The notes under the pieces are model-generated. The model ran no database searches and was not told the origin of the DNA. It was given only the letters and a program-made list of their open reading frames with translations. From assembly GCF_000007225.1 (NCBI RefSeq), contig NC_003364.1, forward strand, positions 1,590,001 through 1,622,000: a stretch of 32,000 bases of DNA. Reading direction: 5' to 3'. The translations under genes and the position numbers were made by a program. This document shows, piece after piece, positions 5,781 through 31,037 of the stretch. Each line of letters begins with the position of its first letter. Positions within the stretch are counted from its first letter, which is position 1. The DNA is from Pyrobaculum aerophilum str. IM2 (GTDB lineage: Archaea; Thermoproteota; Thermoprotei; Thermoproteales; Thermoproteaceae).

Positions 5781-6772
5781 GGCGCTATTAGCACTTTGCC
5801 CACTCTCTCTGGGGATCGGAGCTCTTCCAGCGCCTTCCTCACGTCGGCGAGGGGATAGACGTTGTGTAAAAACGCCTTAATCCTCCCCGCCTCAAGCAAC
5901 CTCACCACTGTATTGAAATCGGCTCTGCGGCCGCCGGTGGCTCCTATTACTAATATCTGCATCCCGTAAAGCCTCCTCAAGTCCAGCCTCACCTCGGCTC
6001 CCGTCAGGGCGCCAGCCGTGACGTATCTCCCCCCTCTTCCCAACACGCCGAAGCTCAGATCCCAGCTGGCCGAGCCGGTGGGGTCAAGCACGACGTCGAA
6101 AGGAGCCGCCGATTTCGCCTCGTCGGGGGTGAGGACGGCGTCTGCGCCGGCGGACTTCAATATCGACTCCACCTTCGCCTTCCTGCGGGAGATGGCGTAA
6201 ACCTCCCCGCCGAGCAGCTTGGCAAATTGCACCGCATATATCCCCACGTTGCCCGTGGCTCCCACCACGGCCACCTTCTCCCCAGGGGATATGGAGGCCC
6301 TATAGGCCATGTTCCAAGCGGTTAAAGCGCCGATGGGCAGAGTGGCCGCCTCCTTGAGATCGGCCCTCGTCGCCACGGCGTTTTTGGCGGGGACTACGGC
6401 GTATTCGGCGTATCCCCCCTGGGTCACAATGCCTATTATGCCGCCTCCAGTCACTTCGCACATCTGAGTCCAGCCGGTCAAGCATTGGCGGCAGTGGCCG
6501 CAGTACAGCCTGTTGTAAACCACGACGGGATCGCCTCTCGACACGCCGGTCACCCCGGGGCCCGCCTCCTCGACGACGCCGGCGAACTCGCTGCCGGGTA
6601 TGTGGGGCATTGGAGAGGCCTTGACGGCCCCCGCCACTACGTTGTAGTCCAACGGGTTTACCCCGGCGTATTTAACTCTTATTAAGACCTCCCCGGGGCC
6701 GGGCCTCGGCGTCTCCGCCTCTACCAGCTTTAAATTCTCAAGCCCTGGGGTTGAGAACGCGGCCGCCCTCAT
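5777..6772 (-). CDS. Zinc-type alcohol dehydrogenase / MDR-family oxidoreductase
   Basis: Motifs: PHIPGSEFAGVV, the structural-zinc Cys cluster CGHCRQCLTGWTQMC, and the Rossmann motif VAVVGATGNVG. Confidence 0.8.
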   Translation of the reverse strand: MRAAAFSTPGLENLKLVEAETPRPGPGEVLIRVKYAGVNPLDYNVVAGAVKASPMPHIPGSEFAGVVEEAGPGVTGVSRGDPVVVYNRLYCGHCRQCLTGWTQMCEVTGGGIIGIVTQGGYAEYAVVPAKNAVATRADLKEAATLPIGALTAWNMAYRASISPGEKVAVVGATGNVGIYAVQFAKLLGGEVYAISRRKAKVESILKSAGADAVLTPDEAKSAAPFDVVLDPTGSASWDLSFGVLGRGGRYVTAGALTGAEVRLDLRRLYGMQILVIGATGGRRADFNTVVRLLEAGRIKAFLHNVYPLADVRKALEELRSPERVGKVLIAP

Positions 6773-7689
6773 TTCATGCCCTCCTCCACCACGTAGTTCC
6801 TTAAAACGCCTATTTTCTCCACCTCGGCCTCTACCACGTCGCCGTGTTTTAAGAATTTGCCCTTGGGGAATCCAACGCCGGGGGGCGTCCCGGTGAATAT
6901 AAGGTCCCCGGGCTTGAGGGTTATGCCCTGGGAGGCCCAGTGTATGAGCTGTTGCACGTTGAAAATAAGCTCTGAAGTGTTGCCCTCTTGCTCCAACTGG
7001 CCGTTGACCCTCAGCCGAAGGCCCAGCCTATTGGGGTCTTCAATTTCGTCTTTCGTCACTATGTAGGGCCCCACGGGAGCCGCCGTGTCCATGGACTTGC
7101 CCCATATCCAGTTCTGCCCGTATGGGTTGAGCTGTTGCGGCCAGCCGGGGGGGAACTGCCAGTCTCTAATTGATATGTCGTTTCCCACAGTGTAGCCGAA
7201 GACGTAGTCGAGCGCCCTCGCGGGGTCAATATACTTGCCGGCCCTCCCGATTACCACTACCAGCTCCACCTCCCAATCTACCTTTTGGGTTACCTTGTGT
7301 TTAATTACGGGCTGCTCGTGTCCCACCAGCGCGTTGGGGAACTTGGGGAAAAAATAGGGCCTTTCCGGCGGCTTCACGCCGGCCTCTTGGCCGTGTGCTT
7401 TGTAATTCACCGCCACGGCGAAGATTTTCTCAGGGTTCGTGACGGGGGGCTCCCAGACTATCTCCTTGGGGCTCAGCTTTGCCTCCTCCGGGGCTTTACG
7501 CGCCAAGTAGTCTACTATCTCCAGCGCGGGCCTGCCCACTGCAATCAGCTTCTTCATGTCGTAGAGAAAGTCCGGCGCCTCAAAGGCGTCGTAAACGGCT
7601 AAATACGCCTTGGGCAGGTCAATAATTACATCGCCTTGTAGAACCCCAACCCTTCTCACCTCCCCCTTTCTGAACGTCAACAGCTTCAT
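6769..7689 (-). CDS. Fumarylacetoacetate hydrolase (FAH) family hydratase/isomerase/decarboxylase
   Basis: FAH-fold motifs PYFFPKFPNAL, GYTVGNDISIRDWQ and GDLIFTGTPPGVG. A TATA-like TTTTAAATATT lies ~25 nt upstream of 7689. Confidence 0.85.
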   Translation of the reverse strand: MKLLTFRKGEVRRVGVLQGDVIIDLPKAYLAVYDAFEAPDFLYDMKKLIAVGRPALEIVDYLARKAPEEAKLSPKEIVWEPPVTNPEKIFAVAVNYKAHGQEAGVKPPERPYFFPKFPNALVGHEQPVIKHKVTQKVDWEVELVVVIGRAGKYIDPARALDYVFGYTVGNDISIRDWQFPPGWPQQLNPYGQNWIWGKSMDTAAPVGPYIVTKDEIEDPNRLGLRLRVNGQLEQEGNTSELIFNVQQLIHWASQGITLKPGDLIFTGTPPGVGFPKGKFLKHGDVVEAEVEKIGVLRNYVVEEGMK

Positions 7690-21075: not shown

Positions 21076-21621
21076 ATGGAGATTTTAGAAAGGCCTCTTC
21101 CCAAGCCGTGTACTGAGGATTATGTCTCTGCGCGTTTGTTAGAGTCTCTCGTGGAGGCTGGCTTGGCCTTGAAATTCCTCGAAGATGGTTTAGTTAGAAA
21201 CGCCGCTGGGAAGGCTTTTCAAGCATGGCGGGCGTTTTTGGCGGCTCTTCTCAGGCTTGAGCTTGATAGGCTTAAGGCCGTTGTAAAGACGGAGGAGGAA
21301 AGGCGCTGGCTTGAGTCCACTGCAGTGCCGAGAGTGCCCACTGGGAGAATGACTTCCCTATCGCAAATGCTAGAGGAGGTGGGACATGGGGGCATTTCTT
21401 TCGGCACTGACAAGGCGCTTAAATTACACGATTATCAATACCACGGCCCAGATCCGGACATGGCGTTGAGCAAATACCGCAACAGAGAGGAGGCGGCTAG
21501 AGACGTCGTGTTGCTTCTGAAAGAACTGGCTAGGCGCGTCGAGGCATTGAAACAGAGGGTTAAGTGGAGCGACGACTTGGAGAGGGCTCTTAGCGCTTTG
21601 AGGGCTGAAATAGGCGCGTAA
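21076..21621 (+). CDS. PaREP1-family protein, paralog 2
   Basis: RNAAGKAFQAW and LKLHDYQYHGPDP align with paralog 3 and, more distantly, with paralog 1. Confidence 0.6.
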   Translation: MEILERPLPKPCTEDYVSARLLESLVEAGLALKFLEDGLVRNAAGKAFQAWRAFLAALLRLELDRLKAVVKTEEERRWLESTAVPRVPTGRMTSLSQMLEEVGHGGISFGTDKALKLHDYQYHGPDPDMALSKYRNREEAARDVVLLLKELARRVEALKQRVKWSDDLERALSALRAEIGA

Positions 21622-23635: not shown

Positions 23636-23796
23636 GATAAAATCGAATTCTACATTAAAATACCACCTCTCGCCGCGGAGGTGGGCGCGTGGCCCCCGCT
23701 TGAGTTTACAGAGCGGCAGACGCCGTTGATCCAGGCGGCGTTATGTACCCCCGCTTGGGGCAATTAAATAATTTATACCAGTCCGCGGTAGCCTTT

Positions 23797-24285
23797 GTGG
23801 ACGTGGTAGTAGAAAAGCCCTGGAGGAATTTACAGGAGTACATTAAGGCGAGGCTTGAAGAGGCTGCTGTCGAGCTACAGCTGGCCTTAATTTTAATGGG
23901 GGAAGGCTATACGAGAAACGCCGCCGGGAAGTTATTTCAAGCGTTCAAGTCCTATTTGGCCGCGGCTGCCGGCGAGAAGAGGGAGGAACTCGCCGCCCGC
24001 CTAAGAGATGTGGACAAGTTAATTGCCTATATGCCAACGAGGGCTTTGGTAAAAATTTCAACGCTTTTAGGCCTTGAGAGAGAGGCCCGCGTGGCCCTAG
24101 CCTTACGCCAATATCAATACAACGGGCCAGACCCCGAGGGGATAACGTCGTTATACCCAGACAGAGAATCCGCCAAACGCGACTTCTGCTGGCTTGCCAA
24201 AAGGCTGATAGAGCTAACCGGCTCTGAAAAAGATTTGTATACTAAAGCCTGCGGAGCGCCAGAGGTAGACTCAAAATCCGATTAG
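23797..24285 (+). CDS. PaREP1-family protein, paralog 3
   Basis: Motifs RNAAGKLFQAF and LALRQYQYNGPDP. The GTG start at 23797 gives the same N-terminal length as paralog 2 and has AATAATTTATAC 18-29 nt upstream. The ORF track starts at 23743. Confidence 0.6.
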   Translation: MDVVVEKPWRNLQEYIKARLEEAAVELQLALILMGEGYTRNAAGKLFQAFKSYLAAAAGEKREELAARLRDVDKLIAYMPTRALVKISTLLGLEREARVALALRQYQYNGPDPEGITSLYPDRESAKRDFCWLAKRLIELTGSEKDLYTKACGAPEVDSKSD

Positions 24286-24997
24286 CGTTTTACAAGTCTG
24301 TTTCAATACTATAAAGCAGACGCGCTGAGGTGCCCAGGCTTTTTACTCCCAGACGTTGCGTACAACAGCCAAAGCGCTTGATATAGCCAACACGCCACTT
24401 CCATCTACAGACAAGCAGTGGCCAGGGCAGAGTTATAAGCCCTACGGCTACAGTCCCCTATATCTCCTCGGTGAAGAGAGAATAAAGCTTAGAAGATGGC
24501 CGCAGAGAAACCACATTAGGAGTACCGGAAATAGACAAAAACGAGCTGGACTTATTATCATACTAGATAAGTGTCTAAGAAGTTGACCAAAGCCCCTAAA
24601 GCGTTTATAACGACATACTTCAAAGGCGCATTCGCTACGTTTAATGAGGGAGATAGGGAAAAGAGATCTTGAAGTAGCTGAAATTTTAGGAGGCTGGAGG
24701 TTGCACATCTACCTTTACAATGCGGAAGTATTAACGCCAATAAATTGAGCTCTCCTTATTCTAACGCCCCTGGTGCTGGAATATAGCCCTCTAGAAAAAG
24801 CCTAGGAAAGGAGTTGCGGTCGGCAGTTACCCACATCCCTTTTATCCCCTGCAATTACTTGATGGGGCATCTGCAATTAGAGCTAATACCCAAAGGGAGC
24901 GCTTCGCATTTTTCCGCATCCATCCTCCTTTTTACTGAGAACACCTTGTTGGCGACGCCTCTTTACAAAAGCGCCTCTGACACCACGACTAATGGTC

Positions 24998-25483
24998 TTA
25001 TCTACGGTTGCCCCTCCCCCTTGAGAATAAGCGAAGCAGGAGGTAGTGCGCCGCAAGCCCCGAGAGGCCTACGGAGAGAACATCGGCCCACAAAGCCCTT
25101 GGCAACGGCGCGTGAAATACATAAGACAGCGCCCACGACAGCGTCAACCAGAGCACTATGTGCAAAACCCCCTTAAACACGCCGTGGCGCCACCCCAAGT
25201 AAAGCGGCATTAAAAGCACAAATGCCGCCGCAAAAATAGCGGTCAGCACAAGCGGAGGAATCATGTAAAAAGAGGCGAAGAGCACCACAATGGCGAGGGC
25301 CTCTAAAAGCCGCATTTTTAAATTAGGCACCTCGTGGAAGAAAAAGACCGTCCCCAATAAGGCTAGGTAAATACCGGCTAGGAAAAAGCCTGCAGTTAAT
25401 GGGTATATGACACCGTCCCCAACCCTATAAGCAAGAAGGAGGAGAAATAAAAAAGAGGACAAAAAAACGAGTTTTGAAATCAC
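24998..25483 (-). CDS. Polytopic membrane protein (about 5 TM), unknown function
   Basis: Strongly hydrophobic 161-aa ORF. Its start overlaps the stop of the 533-aa ORF by 1 nt. Confidence 0.5.
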   Translation of the reverse strand: MISKLVFLSSFLFLLLLAYRVGDGVIYPLTAGFFLAGIYLALLGTVFFFHEVPNLKMRLLEALAIVVLFASFYMIPPLVLTAIFAAAFVLLMPLYLGWRHGVFKGVLHIVLWLTLSWALSYVFHAPLPRALWADVLSVGLSGLAAHYLLLRLFSRGRGNRR

Positions 25484-27084
25484 TATCTCCCTACGCTATA
25501 AACGTCAGTTCCCACATAGGTCTGTCCGCGCCATGTCCATATCTTTGCAGCCACCGGCGAGTTAGTGCTAGAGCTCGGCGGCAAATACATATTCGTACCC
25601 ACATTGTAAACAAGTGTCTGAATACAATCCGGAGAGTATGCATTTTTATAGTAGACGCTGAAACTCTCCCATGTCATGTAAGTTGAGCCACCAAGACGTC
25701 TTAATATGATATTTACCAGGGGAGGTGAACTTTCTGCCCATCCCTTGATCCAGACTACTTCTGTTTTATCTCCGCTACTTGATATACGTAAATAGGCACT
25801 AGCAGATTGAAAGATATTTTGAACGATTTTTAACGCAATAGAATAATAATCAGAATTCTGATTATTACGACCTAATATGGCTAATATCCAGTCTATAGCA
25901 TCTATAACCCCCTGGCCTAAAGCGGCCCACCACTTTTCTTCAACCGCCTCATCACCATAGAGTACAACATTTCCTCCGACTTGCGGACCTCTTATTACCC
26001 ACTTTGCACCACAGTGCAATGAGTTTGTAGCCATAGATAGAACTATTTCACTGCTACTTGCTCTTATTTCAGAAATAACATTTAGCCGAGAGGTATAATT
26101 CACGGGATCGAGAGCTTGTAGTGTGTTTAAAATTAACATTTCACCCCAATGCCCATAAGGCACACCTACTACAGGGTTAATGTATTGAGAAGAAAATGGC
26201 TCCACCCAGCGATCAAAAATAACCTCAAGTGGTTGATCAGGCGAAAAGCTAATGCTCCCGCCGTAATTTAGGTAATCACCATAGACAATTGAAACTGATA
26301 AACCACCGCCAGTGCTTATTGCCTTCGAAATAATATATCCCCTTAGCGGTATTTTCAACTCCACAGTTGATATGTTATACGTGCATGTCCACATATGTGG
26401 CGTGGAGGATGCAGGAGCGATAAATCTGAAGCCGTAGTAAATCTGGTTTATATAATAGTACATCGCCAAGTATGGGCATATACTACCATACCATGTCACC
26501 TTCACAGTATGGGCAGGTATTCTTACAGTGCTGTAAGTAGTACCGCCATTAGCTGACACTATACCATCATAAGCCACATAGGGGCCAAAGAGTATAGCGA
26601 CTTTGCCATTACTCTGATCAAAGTTAATTGTTGTCAATGGATGCGTCGTTGCCTTCGAGGTGGCGACTTGAGCCAAGTTATTAACTGTCTTTTGATACTT
26701 CACAGCAACATAGACATTTATACTTGCCAACTCTGCGATCCCACTTGCTTTAATTCTTAACCCTATCTGGCTGTTCTGCGGCAGATTGGGCGATAGATTA
26801 GTCCATCCATTGCCGTAATTTGGTAGGGATATTGACATTGTGGTGATCTGCGAACATGTATCTAAATTGTAAAACTCTAAAGTGAGGTAGCCGCCAGTAA
26901 TATAGCCGTCAACCTTAACTCCGACAGTAAGGTTTTGCACCTCATACCCTACCCAGTGCATATTTTCTCGGCAAATGTAGGTGTTCCCTACTGGAGAATC
27001 CACTGGTAAGTATTCGCTAAAAGTGCGGGCTACGCTCACGGATTTGAAATACAAGCTCCCCACAGGGTATACCGTCATGCCCAC
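25483..27084 (-). CDS. Orphan 533-aa protein, Y/S/T/N/G/V-rich (beta-rich), low-GC gene
   Basis: Long uninterrupted ORF. Two hand-counted 120-nt samples gave 33% and 43% GC, against roughly 55-60% (estimated by eye, not counted) in neighbouring genes. No signal peptide and no family recognised. Confidence 0.55.
   Translation of the reverse strand: MGMTVYPVGSLYFKSVSVARTFSEYLPVDSPVGNTYICRENMHWVGYEVQNLTVGVKVDGYITGGYLTLEFYNLDTCSQITTMSISLPNYGNGWTNLSPNLPQNSQIGLRIKASGIAELASINVYVAVKYQKTVNNLAQVATSKATTHPLTTINFDQSNGKVAILFGPYVAYDGIVSANGGTTYSTVRIPAHTVKVTWYGSICPYLAMYYYINQIYYGFRFIAPASSTPHMWTCTYNISTVELKIPLRGYIISKAISTGGGLSVSIVYGDYLNYGGSISFSPDQPLEVIFDRWVEPFSSQYINPVVGVPYGHWGEMLILNTLQALDPVNYTSRLNVISEIRASSSEIVLSMATNSLHCGAKWVIRGPQVGGNVVLYGDEAVEEKWWAALGQGVIDAIDWILAILGRNNQNSDYYSIALKIVQNIFQSASAYLRISSSGDKTEVVWIKGWAESSPPLVNIILRRLGGSTYMTWESFSVYYKNAYSPDCIQTLVYNVGTNMYLPPSSSTNSPVAAKIWTWRGQTYVGTDVYSVGR
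25844..25867. repeat. Perfect 24-bp palindrome inside the 533-aa ORF
   Basis: TAATAATCAGAATTCTGATTATTA is self-complementary about GAATTC. Confidence 0.9.
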
Positions 27085-27090
27085 AGACGT

Positions 27091-27261
27091 CCCCTATCCC
27101 CCCCGGGCGCCCCGGGGGACACGGGGCCCCGGATCGCCAGAGGCTTCCGGGGCGGGCCGCGCCCGGGGCGTCGGCAACCCCCTCGGCGGGCTCTCCCCGC
27201 CTTCGGCCCGCGCGCCAGGGCCGCCCCGCCCTGCCCGGGGCGGGGTGGGGGGCGTAGGGGG
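27091..27261. other. GC-rich structured element 1 (candidate ncRNA or 5' leader; about 87% GC)
   Basis: My hand count gave 139 G+C in 27101-27260. The termini can pair (CCCCT/AGGGG plus CCCCCC/GGGGGG). G-quadruplex-type tract GGGGCGGGGTGGGGGGCGTAGGGGG at 27237-27261. The 61-bp core 27194-27254 is homologous to 28376-28436. Confidence 0.4.
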
Positions 27262-27495
27262 ACTCCATGTCTCTAATTCAACTGGTATTTAACATTGATT
27301 AACTGTGGGGGTGGCTGTTGTTCAAGGCTAGAACTGTGCCGTGTGCCGTCGGCGTTGTGGACAGTTTTGAATAAGAGCGGTACCGGATAGGTGTCTTTTG
27401 CCGTTCAAAAGAGGCGCTTCCCGCGTGGCTGGCGTTGTAGGCGGCTTTGAACAAAGACGGGGCGGAAGCCGCCTTGCTCAGCAATTTGCCAGTCG

Positions 27496-27653
27496 TCCTG
27501 ATATTGGCATTTGTCAAGAGGGTACACGCTTTCCTGATACGATTTCCTGATTTACATTTTTCGTGAATCAGGTAATCTATCAGGAACCTGAGTCAGGTTC
27601 CTGATACGTTTCCTGATCGATGAAAAAAGTTTGTCAGGAAACGATGTCAGGAA
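27496..27653. repeat. Array of TTCCTGAY boxes; the 123-bp dyad-symmetric core is 27531-27653
   Basis: Forward boxes at 27531, 27544, 27598 and 27610. Reverse boxes at 27567, 27579, 27633 and 27646. A 7-mer at 27496. Perfect 27-bp palindrome at 27579-27605. Confidence 0.9.
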
Positions 27654-27677
27654 AGCGCAAGTTCTCTTTACATTTGG

Positions 27678-28211
27678 CTATTTTTCCCTGCGGCTCACTC
27701 CGTATATCTTCACGTAGTTGCACATCTCCCCGCAGTACAGGCCGTATTGCTTGCAGTAGCGCTCCTCCACGGGGCGGCCGGGCGGCGGGGGCGGCTCCAC
27801 CAGCTCGGCCTCGGTGCCTGTGCACTTAAGGTACCGTCTGAACGCCTCGTAGGCCGCCCTCGTTATGTCCACTACGACGCGGCGCGTGCCGTTGTCCACC
27901 TCAAGAGTCCACCTCTCAAAGCCGCGGGGGAGCTCACCCCTGCCGCGGGGGAAGAGCGCCTCTCTAGGCAAGCGGAGGATATAGCGAGAGGCGTTGTAGT
28001 ACGGCATTGTGGTCCACTCCCCAGTGGCTACGATATATGTCTCTACAGACTGCGGCACGTATACTACCTCCACGGGCTCCCACCTCTGCCCCACCCAGAC
28101 GTAAATATGCAAACCGTCTACGTCTGGTCCGTTATCTACGTAAACTTCTATTTGCGTAGCGTAGATTAACGCCACTAGCGAAATCACTGCCAGCGCCCAA
28201 TTTGACAACAT
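27678..28211 (-). CDS. Orphan secreted/membrane-anchored protein with Pro-rich linker and Cys-containing C-terminal tail
   Basis: Start reset to the ATG at 28211 (MLSNWALAVISLVALIYA... signal anchor). The palindromic TATA TTTATAAA lies at 28228-28235. C-terminus: PPPPPGRPVEERYCKQYGLYCGEMCNYVK. Confidence 0.5.
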   Translation of the reverse strand: MLSNWALAVISLVALIYATQIEVYVDNGPDVDGLHIYVWVGQRWEPVEVVYVPQSVETYIVATGEWTTMPYYNASRYILRLPREALFPRGRGELPRGFERWTLEVDNGTRRVVVDITRAAYEAFRRYLKCTGTEAELVEPPPPPGRPVEERYCKQYGLYCGEMCNYVKIYGVSRREK

Positions 28212-28255
28212 GAATGGAAAAAAGGAGTTTATAAAGATTACGGAAAGTCTCAACC

Positions 28256-28438
28256 GGCCCCCACCCTGTTAGACGGCTTTAACAATAGCTCTCCGGAGAT
28301 CCTCCGGGACTCGGAGGCCGGGCAGGCTCATATCAACGCGCCGAGAGCTTGCCAGTGGGACTGACCCCCGACGATTCCCCGCCTTCGGCCCGCTTGCGGG
28401 GACCGCCTTTACCTGCCGGGGGCGGACAGAGGGGCGCC
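28256..28438. other. GC-rich structured element 2 (related to element 1)
   Basis: The 61-bp core 28376-28436 matches 27194-27254 (18/18 identical block TCCCCGCCTTCGGCCCGC; 47/61 overall, ungapped). A 9-bp stem GGCAGGCTC/GAGCTTGCC lies at 28321-28353. An oligo-T run lies at 28453-28457. Confidence 0.4.
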
Positions 28439-28626
28439 AGAACCTTCATGAGTTTTTCTTACCGCCGTAGAGAAGATCCTACTGCTGTTGTCGCAACCGC
28501 TGTTGCCTAGGAAATTCGGCTTTTTACCTTGCACTCAACTACTGCCTCAGCCACCGCGAGCGGGTAGCCAGTATTGTAAATACCGCGAGCCTGTGAAGAC
28601 ATTTAAAATCTGGCATAAACTATGGC

Positions 28627-29313
28627 ATGTTAGAGGTAATTCTCCTCTTCATTGTAATAGTCCTGGCGCTCGTGCTCTACCACGAAAGGGCGAAAGTAAG
28701 ACTAATCCAGCAAGAGTTTGAGATGCAGAAACGCGCCTTGGAGGAACAACTGAGGAGAGAGATCGCCGCCAGGGAGGAATTATTGAGGAGAGAACTCGCC
28801 GTCAAGGAGGAGCAGCTGAGGAAGGAGGCGGAGCTCAAACTCGCCGAGTGGATCAAGGAGAAGGAGCGGGAGATTAGAGAGGACGCCATCAGGAGGTCTG
28901 TGGCAGTTCTGCTGGGCAGAGTCGGCGAACAGATGGCGCCTCTCCTCATGTCCCGAGAGCTCAACTTCGACCCGAGGGACTGTAGGTACATCGGAACTCC
29001 CGTGGACTACGTCGTATTTAAGGGCCTCAGCGATAGGGGAGAGGTCGAGGAGATTTTGTTCGTGGAGGTGAAGACCGGCAAGTCATCGTCTCTGTCAGAG
29101 AGGGAGAGGGCTGTCAGAAAGGCCGTGGAGAACAAGAGGGTTAGGTGGGTTACGTATAATCTGAGAGGCGCTGTGGAAAAAATCGGCACATTTCTGGAGC
29201 GGGATATAAAGAGCGTAGTTGAGGGCCAAATGCAAGAGCGCCTGAGGGAAAGTGCTCAATCCCCCGCTGAGAAAGTCCCCGAGCCGGCAATTTTCTCCAT
29301 TGAAAATTCATGA
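28627..29313 (+). CDS. Membrane-anchored coiled-coil protein with C-terminal Hjc-like (archaeal Holliday-junction-resolvase-related) nuclease domain
   Basis: N-terminal TM MLEVILLFIVIVLALVLY, then an E/R/K-rich heptad region. The nuclease-like motifs GEQMAPLL...PVDYVVF...FVEVKTGK fit the E-D-ExK pattern of COG4741/Endonuc_Holl-type proteins. TATA CATTTAAAATC lies ~25 nt upstream. Confidence 0.65.
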   Translation: MLEVILLFIVIVLALVLYHERAKVRLIQQEFEMQKRALEEQLRREIAAREELLRRELAVKEEQLRKEAELKLAEWIKEKEREIREDAIRRSVAVLLGRVGEQMAPLLMSRELNFDPRDCRYIGTPVDYVVFKGLSDRGEVEEILFVEVKTGKSSSLSERERAVRKAVENKRVRWVTYNLRGAVEKIGTFLERDIKSVVEGQMQERLRESAQSPAEKVPEPAIFSIENS

Positions 29314-29651
29314 ATTTTTTCAGGTAAACAAAATTTGGGAAATTCTCAAGAAGGTTGCGGGCGAAATGGAGAGACGAGGGGGCCATTACCCCAATATGTT
29401 AGCTGAAAATAAAGACGTTTCTCAACTCTTGGAACCAGTAAAGGCGGCTGAGATTTATTTTCAACGCCTCAGCGAGAAAAACCGCATAGTCAGCACAAGA
29501 CGGTAATTAGCCCCCGGGCGAAGTGGCTTGCGGCTTACGCAATATGCGGCTTCGGCATTACGCCGTGGCATTTCGGGTAATTATGTGCCAATGGGGTACT
29601 GAAAAAAGTTCATTTTTAAAAATATTTTTATAAAAAAATCGATTTTTTCAC

Positions 29652-31037
29652 ATGGCTAAACTCAAGCCGGATCCCACTTTCTACCCAACGCCTAGAGACG
29701 CCATGCGCGCCCCTCCTGAGGATATTGCCTATGTAGCGGCTTTATATGTGGGTACTGGCGTGAATGCGCCGGACTTCCTCGCGGTAGTTGACGTTGATCC
29801 CAAATCCCCCACATACGGCAAGGTTATCTACAAGCTGGATTTGCCCTATATAGGCGACGAGCTACACCACTTCGGCTGGAATGCCTGTTCCTCTGCCTAC
29901 TGCCCAAACGCCAAGCCGTTTTTAGAAAGGCGGTATTTAATCGTCCCCGCGCTTAGATCTTCGCGAATTTATATCGTAGATACCAAGCCCGATAAGAGGA
30001 GGCCCGCTGTGGCTAAAATCGTTGAGCCGGAGGTAGCCGTGGGGAGGACCGGCTATACGAAATACCATACTGTTCACTGCGGCCCAGACGCCATATACAT
30101 CTCGGCGTTAGGAGGCCCCGACGGCAGGGAGGGGCCGGGCGGAATATTCCTACTGGATCACGACACTTTTGAGCCAATAGGCAGGTGGGAGGTCTACAGA
30201 GGCCCTCAGTATTTCGCCTACGACTTCTGGTGGAATCTTCCCAGCGGCGTTATGATTACAAGCGAGTGGACCGTGCCGAGGTGTTTTGAGGAAGGCTTTA
30301 GTTTAGAGTGCTTAAAAGAAGGCGCCTACGGGAATAAGCTTCATGTATGGGACTTGGCAAAGAGAAGGCATTTATACGCCATAGATCTCGGCCAGGAGCA
30401 CAGAATGGTGTTAGAGGTTAGGCCTCTCCACGATCCCACTAAACTAATGGGCTTTGTAAACGTAGTGCTTAACACTAAAGATCTGTCCAGTTCCATATGG
30501 CTCTGGTTTTATGAAGATGGGAAGTGGCAGGCGGAGAGGGTAATTGACATTGAGGCACAGCCTTTTGAGGGACCTCTGCCGCCTGTGTTAAAAGATTTTA
30601 AAATGGTCCCGCCGCTTGTCACAGATATAGACATATCCCTCGACGACCGCTTCCTATACGTCTCTCTGTGGGGGCTTGGGGAGCTTAGACAATACGACAT
30701 TACAAACCCGCACCAGCCTAGGCTGGCAGGCAGGGTGAAAATCGGCGGCTTGTATCACAGAGAGCCGCACCCCTCGGGGGCCGAGGCCACGGGGGCGCCG
30801 CAGATGATCTCAGTGAGTAGAGACGGGAGGAGGGTCTACATCACTAACAGTCTTTACAGCAGTTGGAATAACCAGTTCTACCCAGGCCTCAGGGGCTGGA
30901 TGGCAAAAGTAAACGTAAATCCCGAGGGGGGTTTAGAGTTAGAAAAGGAGTTTTTCGTGGACTTCGGCAGGGCCAGGGCCCACCAAGTGAGGCTTTGGGG
31001 CGGCGACGCCTCCACCGACAGCTTCTGCTACCCATAA
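29652..31037 (+). CDS. Selenium-binding protein (SBP56) family / methanethiol-oxidase-like
   Basis: N-terminus KPDPTFYPTPRDAMRAPPEDIAYVA, plus HHFGWNACSS and RIYIVDTKPD, typical of SBP56. Confidence 0.85.
   Translation: MAKLKPDPTFYPTPRDAMRAPPEDIAYVAALYVGTGVNAPDFLAVVDVDPKSPTYGKVIYKLDLPYIGDELHHFGWNACSSAYCPNAKPFLERRYLIVPALRSSRIYIVDTKPDKRRPAVAKIVEPEVAVGRTGYTKYHTVHCGPDAIYISALGGPDGREGPGGIFLLDHDTFEPIGRWEVYRGPQYFAYDFWWNLPSGVMITSEWTVPRCFEEGFSLECLKEGAYGNKLHVWDLAKRRHLYAIDLGQEHRMVLEVRPLHDPTKLMGFVNVVLNTKDLSSSIWLWFYEDGKWQAERVIDIEAQPFEGPLPPVLKDFKMVPPLVTDIDISLDDRFLYVSLWGLGELRQYDITNPHQPRLAGRVKIGGLYHREPHPSGAEATGAPQMISVSRDGRRVYITNSLYSSWNNQFYPGLRGWMAKVNVNPEGGLELEKEFFVDFGRARAHQVRLWGGDASTDSFCYP

Follow-up and report, generated by a model that had tools for sequence, protein, structure and literature searches.

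The described systems that come closest to the array treated here are, in bacteria, the REP/BIME and REPIN repeats, including the CGTC-tagged REPs, which are extragenic, lie mostly downstream of genes, and consist of short palindromic units alternating head-to-head and tail-to-tail with defined linkers, in mosaic variants and in clusters (PMC3733652). The array has all these traits, together with a CGTC-type motif at the base of its inner units. It differs from a REP, which is a stem-loop of 20–40 bp, in repeating a 5-nt core ten times in fixed phase over 115–123 bp, in having stems without compensatory covariation (66.5% of the cells paired versus 64.9% in shuffles), in the absence of any RAYT to be seen (no Y1_Tnp match in ~90 kb of island loci), and in its archaeal host, in which the copies are, as far as seen, limited to mobile islands.

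The attC repeats of Vibrio cholerae measure 123–126 bp. Integron attC sites share with the array the form of a ~120-bp imperfect palindrome located after small ORFan genes at high density, as well as conserved recognition sites, a variable centre and chimeric variants; the array, in contrast, has none of the RYYYAAC/GTTRRRY cores, its consensus ending in CCTGAC and GTCAGG, while the island gene tables contain no Pfam match to an IntI-type integrase, the neighbouring genes lie in both orientations, and homology between strains does not break consistently at the arrays. The omega heptads of pSM19035, the ParR iterons and the ParG boxes are multi-repeat arrays at promoters beside par genes; such plasmid centromere and operator arrays are similar to ours in their many direct and inverted short boxes, the several arrays per replicon and the free spacers, whereas the copies of our array stand mostly at gene 3' ends, and no gene of ParA type was seen. 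ORB and mini-ORB origins likewise place inverted recognition elements around A/T-rich DNA, but the array is multicopy, has neither an adjacent initiator nor an unwinding element of useful length, and is not conserved at the orthologous site.

Within the genus, the MITE-like C/D-box sRNA element of Pyrobaculum calidifontis, which carries canonical C and D boxes and was not detected in P. aerophilum or P. oguniense (PMC6009581), resembles the array in its multiple copies, its inverted-repeat flanks, its unstable non-syntenic surroundings and its CUGA motifs; the array differs in having no RUGAUGA box, and with the spacing also wrong we rejected it as a C/D-box sRNA. In the published literature we found no description of such an array, nor did Rfam give a match, and the ~120-bp CCTGA-box palindromic repeat family is apparently undescribed.

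Layout of the array within its window

The array lies in a window of 32,000 nt (51.3% GC) from the chromosome of P. aerophilum IM2, the relevant features of which are collected in Table 1. It is 100% identical to contigs that include one from a mock-community run, and the closest protein with a named source comes from P. aerophilum. A first-pass annotation, made from the letters of the DNA, had described forward and reverse TTCCTGAY boxes—plus a TCCTGAT at 27496—forming two 56-bp units on either side of a perfect 27-bp palindrome. Upon re-reading and recomputation every coordinate proved right: unit 27531–27586 agrees with the reverse complement of unit 27598–27653 at 42/56 positions, and the palindrome has the form 13+1+13. 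The CCTGA cores stand at offsets 0, 13, 35, 47, 54, 60, 67, 79, 101, and 114, including those of two extra half-boxes at the array centre, AACCTGAG and CTCAGGTT. The 123 bp are self-complementary at 94/123 positions, and a repeat search extends the dyad to arms of 89 nt (27503–27591 and 27593–27681) that are 72% complementary around G27592. The T5 tract of spacer 1 is reversed in orientation between family members, and the position of the outlying box F0 is shared by some of them only.

Table 1. Features of the array, the inserted fragment and the interrupted gene, in positions of the window
Feature	Position	Strand	Basis or remark
Host gene 3' part, read as a 533-aa ORF, 40–43% GC	25483..27088	-	
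Foreign segment, 779 bp	27089..27867	.	blastn against L138 and protein comparison
GC-rich (~75%) element, 170 bp, ~17-nt inverted ends	27089..27258	.	fold
Insert part between GC-rich element and array	27259..27494	.	no Rfam match
Outlying box F0, GTCCTGAT	27495..27502	+	36 nt outside F1
Extended imperfect palindrome, the full repeat unit with a ~28-nt conserved flank on each side	27503..27681	.	repeat search
Core array, 123 bp	27531..27653	.	ten CCTGA cores
Forward boxes, TTCCTGAT	27531, 27544, 27598, 27610	+	sequence reading and script
Reverse boxes	ATCAGGTA 27567; ATCAGGAA 27579; GTCAGGAA 27633 and 27646	-	sequence reading and script
F1 (27531–27538) and F2 (27544–27551)	27531..27551	+	13 nt apart
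Spacer 1, 15 nt, T5 tract	27552..27566	.	
R1 (27567–27574; weak, TACCTGAT) and R2 (27579–27586)	27567..27586	-	
Central 27-nt palindrome: R2, two overlapping half-boxes, F3	27579..27605	.	script
F3 (27598–27605) and F4 (27610–27617)	27598..27617	+	
Spacer 2, 15 nt, A6 tract	27618..27632	.	
R3 (27633–27640) and R4 (27646–27653)	27633..27653	-	
3' end (63 codons and stop) of the 105-aa mobile-island gene, joined in frame to the host gene 5' part	27678..27867	-	
Host gene 5' part, signal/TM-like N-terminus	27868..28211	-	blastn, protein comparison

That so ordered an arrangement is not a product of chance, as the first pass had maintained, was borne out by shuffling: all 7 of the exact TTCCTGAY occurrences in the 32 kb fall within 27531–27653, the shuffles giving a mean of 1.46 and a maximum of 5 over the whole 32 kb, while 11 CCTGA/TCAGG cores are packed within 160 nt (maximum of 6 in 300 shuffles). 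The 8-mer fared less well as the repeating unit; its sites stand, but the TT prefix is specific to the lineage, and the unit common to the entire family is CCTGA, usually CCTGAC. A profile HMM of that family matches the window at 27495–27691 (E 3e-44).

Elsewhere in the window we observed three PaREP1 genes (606–1067, 21076–21621 and 23743–24285), along with a PIN-domain ORF (1505–1882) that may form a toxin–antitoxin pair with a small upstream ORF (1879–2229), which company fits a variable chromosomal region. Pfam scans of the gene-like ORFs of at least 100 aa across the window revealed no Orc1/Cdc6, WhiP, Rep, ParA-type, integrase or transposase gene, in keeping with the first-pass remark that no initiator, ParA or integrase gene lay nearby; of the 105-aa protein considered below, these scans covered the C-terminal 63 residues, which are contained in a window ORF. 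Rfam gave no match at the gathering score—only chance matches of the miRNA type, with E ≥ 0.03—and a tRNA scan found none.

The interrupted gene and the provenance of the fragment

In L138 and L139, the assemblies of two sister strains of P. aerophilum whose flanks are ~99% identical to those of the window, the site is occupied by one intact gene of 710/715 aa, whose counterpart in the window consists of a 533-aa ORF (25483–27084) and a 191-aa ORF (27678–28253). By blastn, at ~99% identity, window 24001–27088 corresponds to L138 5971–9058, and window 27868–30000 to L138 9242–11376, so that, from the ends of the alignment on L138, the 779 bp in the window stand in place of 183 bp of coding sequence. 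This insert comprises two-thirds (the 3' part) of a 105-aa gene together with the array, ~240 bp of further sequence and the 170-bp GC-rich element with its inverted ends; the final 63 codons of the 191-aa ORF are supplied by it. Judged from these alignments, the array is not native here, a piece of a mobile island having split the 710-aa gene into two ORFs. The cognate gene would accordingly not be expected nearby, since the fragment that holds the array is foreign and missing from the sister-strain site.

The 63 residues encoded by the insert have 90% amino-acid identity to the C-terminal two-thirds of P0042, a protein of 105 aa from a metagenomic contig (L140) on which a 212-aa gene, the 105-aa gene and an array follow one another, the contig terminating inside the array. 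On L140 the sequence TTTCCTGACATCGTTTCCTGACAAACTTTTTTC, which is the reverse complement of window 27620–27652, begins 15 nt past the stop of the 105-aa gene, and window 27622–27874 is 92.5% identical in nucleotides to L140 1175–921. Because the same junction is found on L140, the 105-aa gene and the array travel together, with the window holding a truncated piece of the pair. AlphaFold2 gave an unusable model of the 105-aa protein (pLDDT 56).

As to the other components of the locus, the interrupted gene (L138 7453–9585) has a GC-rich 5' part and a 3' part of 40–43% GC, belongs to no family in Pfam, NCBIfam or PHROGs, and may itself sit in a variable region, since the neighbourhoods of the two sister assemblies differ. 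The GC-rich element ends in GTCCCCTATCCCCCCC and GGGGGGCGTAGGGGGAC, its left end being the exact left junction of the insert. Other assemblies of the same strain begin inside it, at 27232 and 27251, and because these assemblies break there the element is probably a separate multicopy repeat, which suggests one of MITE-like type; its 16-nt GC palindrome CCGGGCGCCCCGGGGG recurs on a second island contig (L141 728–743) at the point where homology between L140 and L141 stops. Between the GC-rich element and the array there is also a 24-nt direct repeat (27351–27374 and 27431–27454, 79% identical) with small inverted repeats and no Rfam match.

An array family in Pyrobaculum islands

The 8-kb contig L141 encodes a homologue of the 212-aa protein with 81% identity and bears three arrays in 3 kb, all with the exact offsets of the window's array. 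A profile search with the L141 protein retrieved P0054 in the chromosome of P. oguniense TE7, where six arrays are spread over 30 kb (1,825,717–1,855,769). According to a table in the genome paper, P. oguniense 1,825–1,870 kb is a paREP2-associated region; such regions, which are large, are related to the largest deletions in P. arsenaticum, where they are absent (PMC3558965). Orthologous arrays are also borne by a Pyrobaculum MAG contig (L152) and by two more contigs. An HMM constructed from eight arrays picked up all the known copies, and no other sequence, in the archaeal loci searched: the window gave a single array, 35 kb of sister-strain sequence gave none, and in 67 kb of P. aerophilum-type chromosome there was none apart from the relic; nor were arrays present at the other loci of the 210-aa protein family (L148–L151 and L156). 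The restriction to islands is thereby founded on ~150 kb of sequence, and several of the copies compared come from metagenome assemblies, where repeats may be mis-joined. By this comparison the window's array is evidently one of the composite, palindromic, intergenic repeats that make up a multicopy family in the mobile or variable islands of Pyrobaculum. The conservation in related genomes on which the first-pass annotation had made its reading depend consequently fails at this locus, the sister strains being without the array, and holds for the family elsewhere.

The islands carry genes for a RadA paralogue, for DprA-like, radical-SAM/SPL-like and STIV B116-like proteins (the last being Pogu_2112 in P. 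oguniense), for a winged-helix protein of 85 aa (Pogu_2104) and for PaRep2b, besides six ankyrin-repeat genes and a large number of small ORFans; the 210-aa protein has no Pfam family. Searches of phages and plasmids with the array (blastn) and with 11 island proteins (tblastn) returned nothing relevant, those of IMG/VR and of related loci with three island proteins gave no match, and strict box patterns in metagenome and viral contigs yielded chance matches or none; a dense pattern match in genome contigs (L044) was rejected as a simple AATCAGG tandem repeat, the other matches listed being bacterial and due to chance.

Several side observations concern these islands. The six ankyrin-repeat genes (233–486 aa) are tandem paralogues at L155 306–8498 (P. 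oguniense 1.847–1.855 Mb), with no arrays between them. At L141 890–2203, on a contig of archaeal type, there is a class-II tRNA nucleotidyltransferase (PolyA_pol head plus HD; match to phage family phrog_2244, 1e-64); the known archaeal CCA-adding enzymes are class I. Two assemblers stop contigs at the centre of array a3 (L141 8035–8049; end of L146), and L140 stops, at 1175, 33 nt into its array; these ends may be due to a perfect palindrome or to breaks induced by the repeat, a physical hairpin end being also possible. A member (L156 682–3097, labelled P. aerophilum) of the cluster of P0055, which is itself remotely homologous to the 210-aa family, adjoins a Piwi-domain (pAgo) gene, with no array.

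The numbers and positions of these copies bear on what an array might do. As a replication origin of the ORB or iteron type, for a chromosome or for an island, it would have in its favour the inverted repeats on either side of A/T tracts and the 6-mer CAGGAA, which we take to occur also in crenarchaeal ORB cores. Three copies in 3 kb and six in 30 kb are nevertheless not what an origin would call for; the A/T runs, of 4–7 nt, are far too short for an unwinding element; L138 and L139 have an intact gene and no array at the orthologous site; and neither the window nor the Pfam tables of L141, L147 (P. oguniense), L152 and L155 showed an Orc1/Cdc6, WhiP or Rep. On these grounds we abandon the origin put forward in the first pass, which we consider highly improbable.

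The operator array entertained in the same annotation, in which the boxes would be the sites of a regulator controlling the neighbouring promoters, finds some encouragement in two P. oguniense copies between divergent gene starts (L147 4536 and 13727), in an 85-aa MarR/TrmB-like gene that in four contigs runs exactly up to array d, and in the location of L141 a1 at 67 nt upstream of a radical-SAM gene. Most copies, however, follow gene 3' ends or sit between convergent genes (the window and L140, L141 a2 and a3, L147 a, d and e, and L155 169), and in L141 no array stands in the short promoter regions between divergent genes (6141–6188 and 7271–7374), so that an operator role is, in our estimation, improbable. 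For the centromere-like partition site that the first pass had likewise named, no ParA-type gene was seen.

Our main rival explanation is a selfish mobile palindromic repeat of the REP/BIME, REPIN, ERIC or MITE type, which would spread itself between genes and whose cores would be transposase sites. The copies are indeed multiple, strictly intergenic and in both orientations; they often abut stop codons, downstream of genes or between convergent ones; assemblies break within the arrays; the palindromic units alternate in orientation with defined linkers; and the CGTCAG/CTGACG at the inner boxes recalls the CGTC-tagged bacterial REPs (PMC3733652). Against a selfish repeat stand the lack of a common target-site duplication at the symmetric boundaries (k 4–9, three copies), the sharing of orthologous sites by the copies of P. 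oguniense, of the MAG and of the metagenome contigs, the absence of a Y1/RAYT, IS or integrase Pfam match in the island gene tables, the lack of any array, the relic excepted, in 67 kb of P. aerophilum-type chromosome, and a likeness of just 70–85% among copies within one genome, in which the cores are nonetheless invariant. With regard to a MITE in particular, terminal inverted repeats and a small size are there (a unit of 179 bp with 89-nt arms), but single copies do not vary in presence, since P. oguniense and L152 both have arrays c, d and e, two of which (d and e) L154 has as well; the presence/absence polymorphism at the window involves the larger 779-bp fragment and not a single array. 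Nor did the array turn out to match the termini of any known IS or MITE, a match that the first pass had named as fatal to its own reading. A selfish repeat is in sum a serious possibility, though not the one that we would expect to prevail.

Constraint, turnover and a proposed role

Among the window's array and L141 a1 and a2, pairwise identity was 98.7% for the core pentamers and 87% for the 8-mer boxes, falling to 47% for the remaining array columns and to 22–31% for the far flanks; a contrast as large between the cores and the rest was obtained in 0 of 20,000 permutations (p<5e-5). Over 15 arrays the main-box cores are perfect CCTGA in 113/120 instances and are fixed to ±1 nt, at positions 0, 13, 34/35, 46/47, 53/54, 60/61, 67/68, 79/80, 100/101 and 113/114, the layout of the family being two cores in direct orientation, a spacer with an A/T tract, two cores in inverted orientation and a double palindromic centre, followed by the mirror image. 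In the P. oguniense copies the box reads NNCCTGAC and the centre TCAGGATCCTGGGCCCAGGATCCTGA; the geometry persists even though the 210-aa protein common to both islands is only 31% identical. From these alignments, it is the CCTGA pentamers and their spacing alone that are held constant in the family and thus evidently under constraint. Mobile repeats that keep their transposase sites, or concerted evolution among the ten copies of the motif, could also account for the conservation of the cores.

The 179-nt single strand folds at -46.9 kcal/mol (z = -10.9), which figure, along with the location at gene 3' ends and the run of 4–7 A or T in each spacer, speaks for an element acting in the transcript, either a terminator that works in both directions or a stable hairpin RNA at the 3' end. 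Yet several of the upstream genes have their own T5–T7 run ahead of the array; a T run faces incoming transcription on 11/19 sides (versus 2/8 of the sides without an incoming gene); and there is no Rfam family and little covariation beyond the invariant cores. Since those cores alone explain the pairing and the complementarity of the spacers is low (38–54%), the selected feature is the symmetric set of sites rather than a helix, and a role in the transcript appears to us very improbable.

Whereas the cores are held, the interior of the arrays changes rapidly. In array d, 19/119 positions differ between the near-identical contigs L154 and L152, mostly in one half, as opposed to 4 differences in a flank of 600 nt. 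The P. oguniense array d matches its orthologues at 80–85% when reversed and at 70% in the forward direction, its asymmetric end markers CACGTCCG and CAGATTAG having exchanged sides; the flank on the side of the 85-aa gene is collinear, while between L147 and L152 the opposite flank shares no homology. The spacer A/T tracts, moreover, flip in orientation between copies, and orthologous arrays are inverted in place or converted in patches with flanks that are still 99% identical. All this is consistent with inverted cores undergoing inversion and conversion, either through a recombinase or through template switching at the palindromes, and the array interior is by all appearances recombinogenic, with fast-changing spacers. 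As cassette boundaries, for their part, the arrays were rejected, given that just ~2 of the 6 homology breaks between L147 and L152 touch one.

The explanation that we favour, with moderate confidence, makes the array a mobile-island module with multiple protein-recognition sites, present at this locus as an inactive relic, and neither an origin nor primarily a promoter operator. The CCTGA cores would be the predicted recognition sites of one sequence-specific DNA-binding protein, of which ~8–10 protomers—that is, 4–5 dimers—may assemble per array. In its native island the array would serve as a repeated cis-module of architectural or recombination type between transcription units, a platform for a nucleoprotein complex, whereas at the present locus it would be an inactive remnant, unless the protein is still encoded elsewhere in the genome. 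From the first-pass reading, a multi-site recognition array of archaeal mobile elements, we accordingly retain the likeness to mobile-element arrays, which the presence of the family in islands supports, and drop the origin and the promoter operator.

A bolder proposal, which we put forward with considerable reserve, is that the arrays may be the working sites of a dedicated DNA-processing system—a recombinase, or a hairpin or cruciform enzyme recognising the CCTGA cores—that belongs to a new family of Pyrobaculum islands, flips and exchanges the array halves and possibly shuffles small genes; this would be an archaeal counterpart of the attC and REPIN-type systems with an architecture of its own.

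For the locus itself, what appeared to be an orphan origin would become a dated scar, a gene broken by a fragment of a mobile island. The interest of the finding is moderate with regard to the family and low with regard to a functional element at this particular site. The arrays would be useful for recognising such islands in genomes, and the combination of a strict geometry with a fast turnover of the interior may provide a way to trace, in hyperthermophilic archaea, a new protein that binds or recombines DNA.
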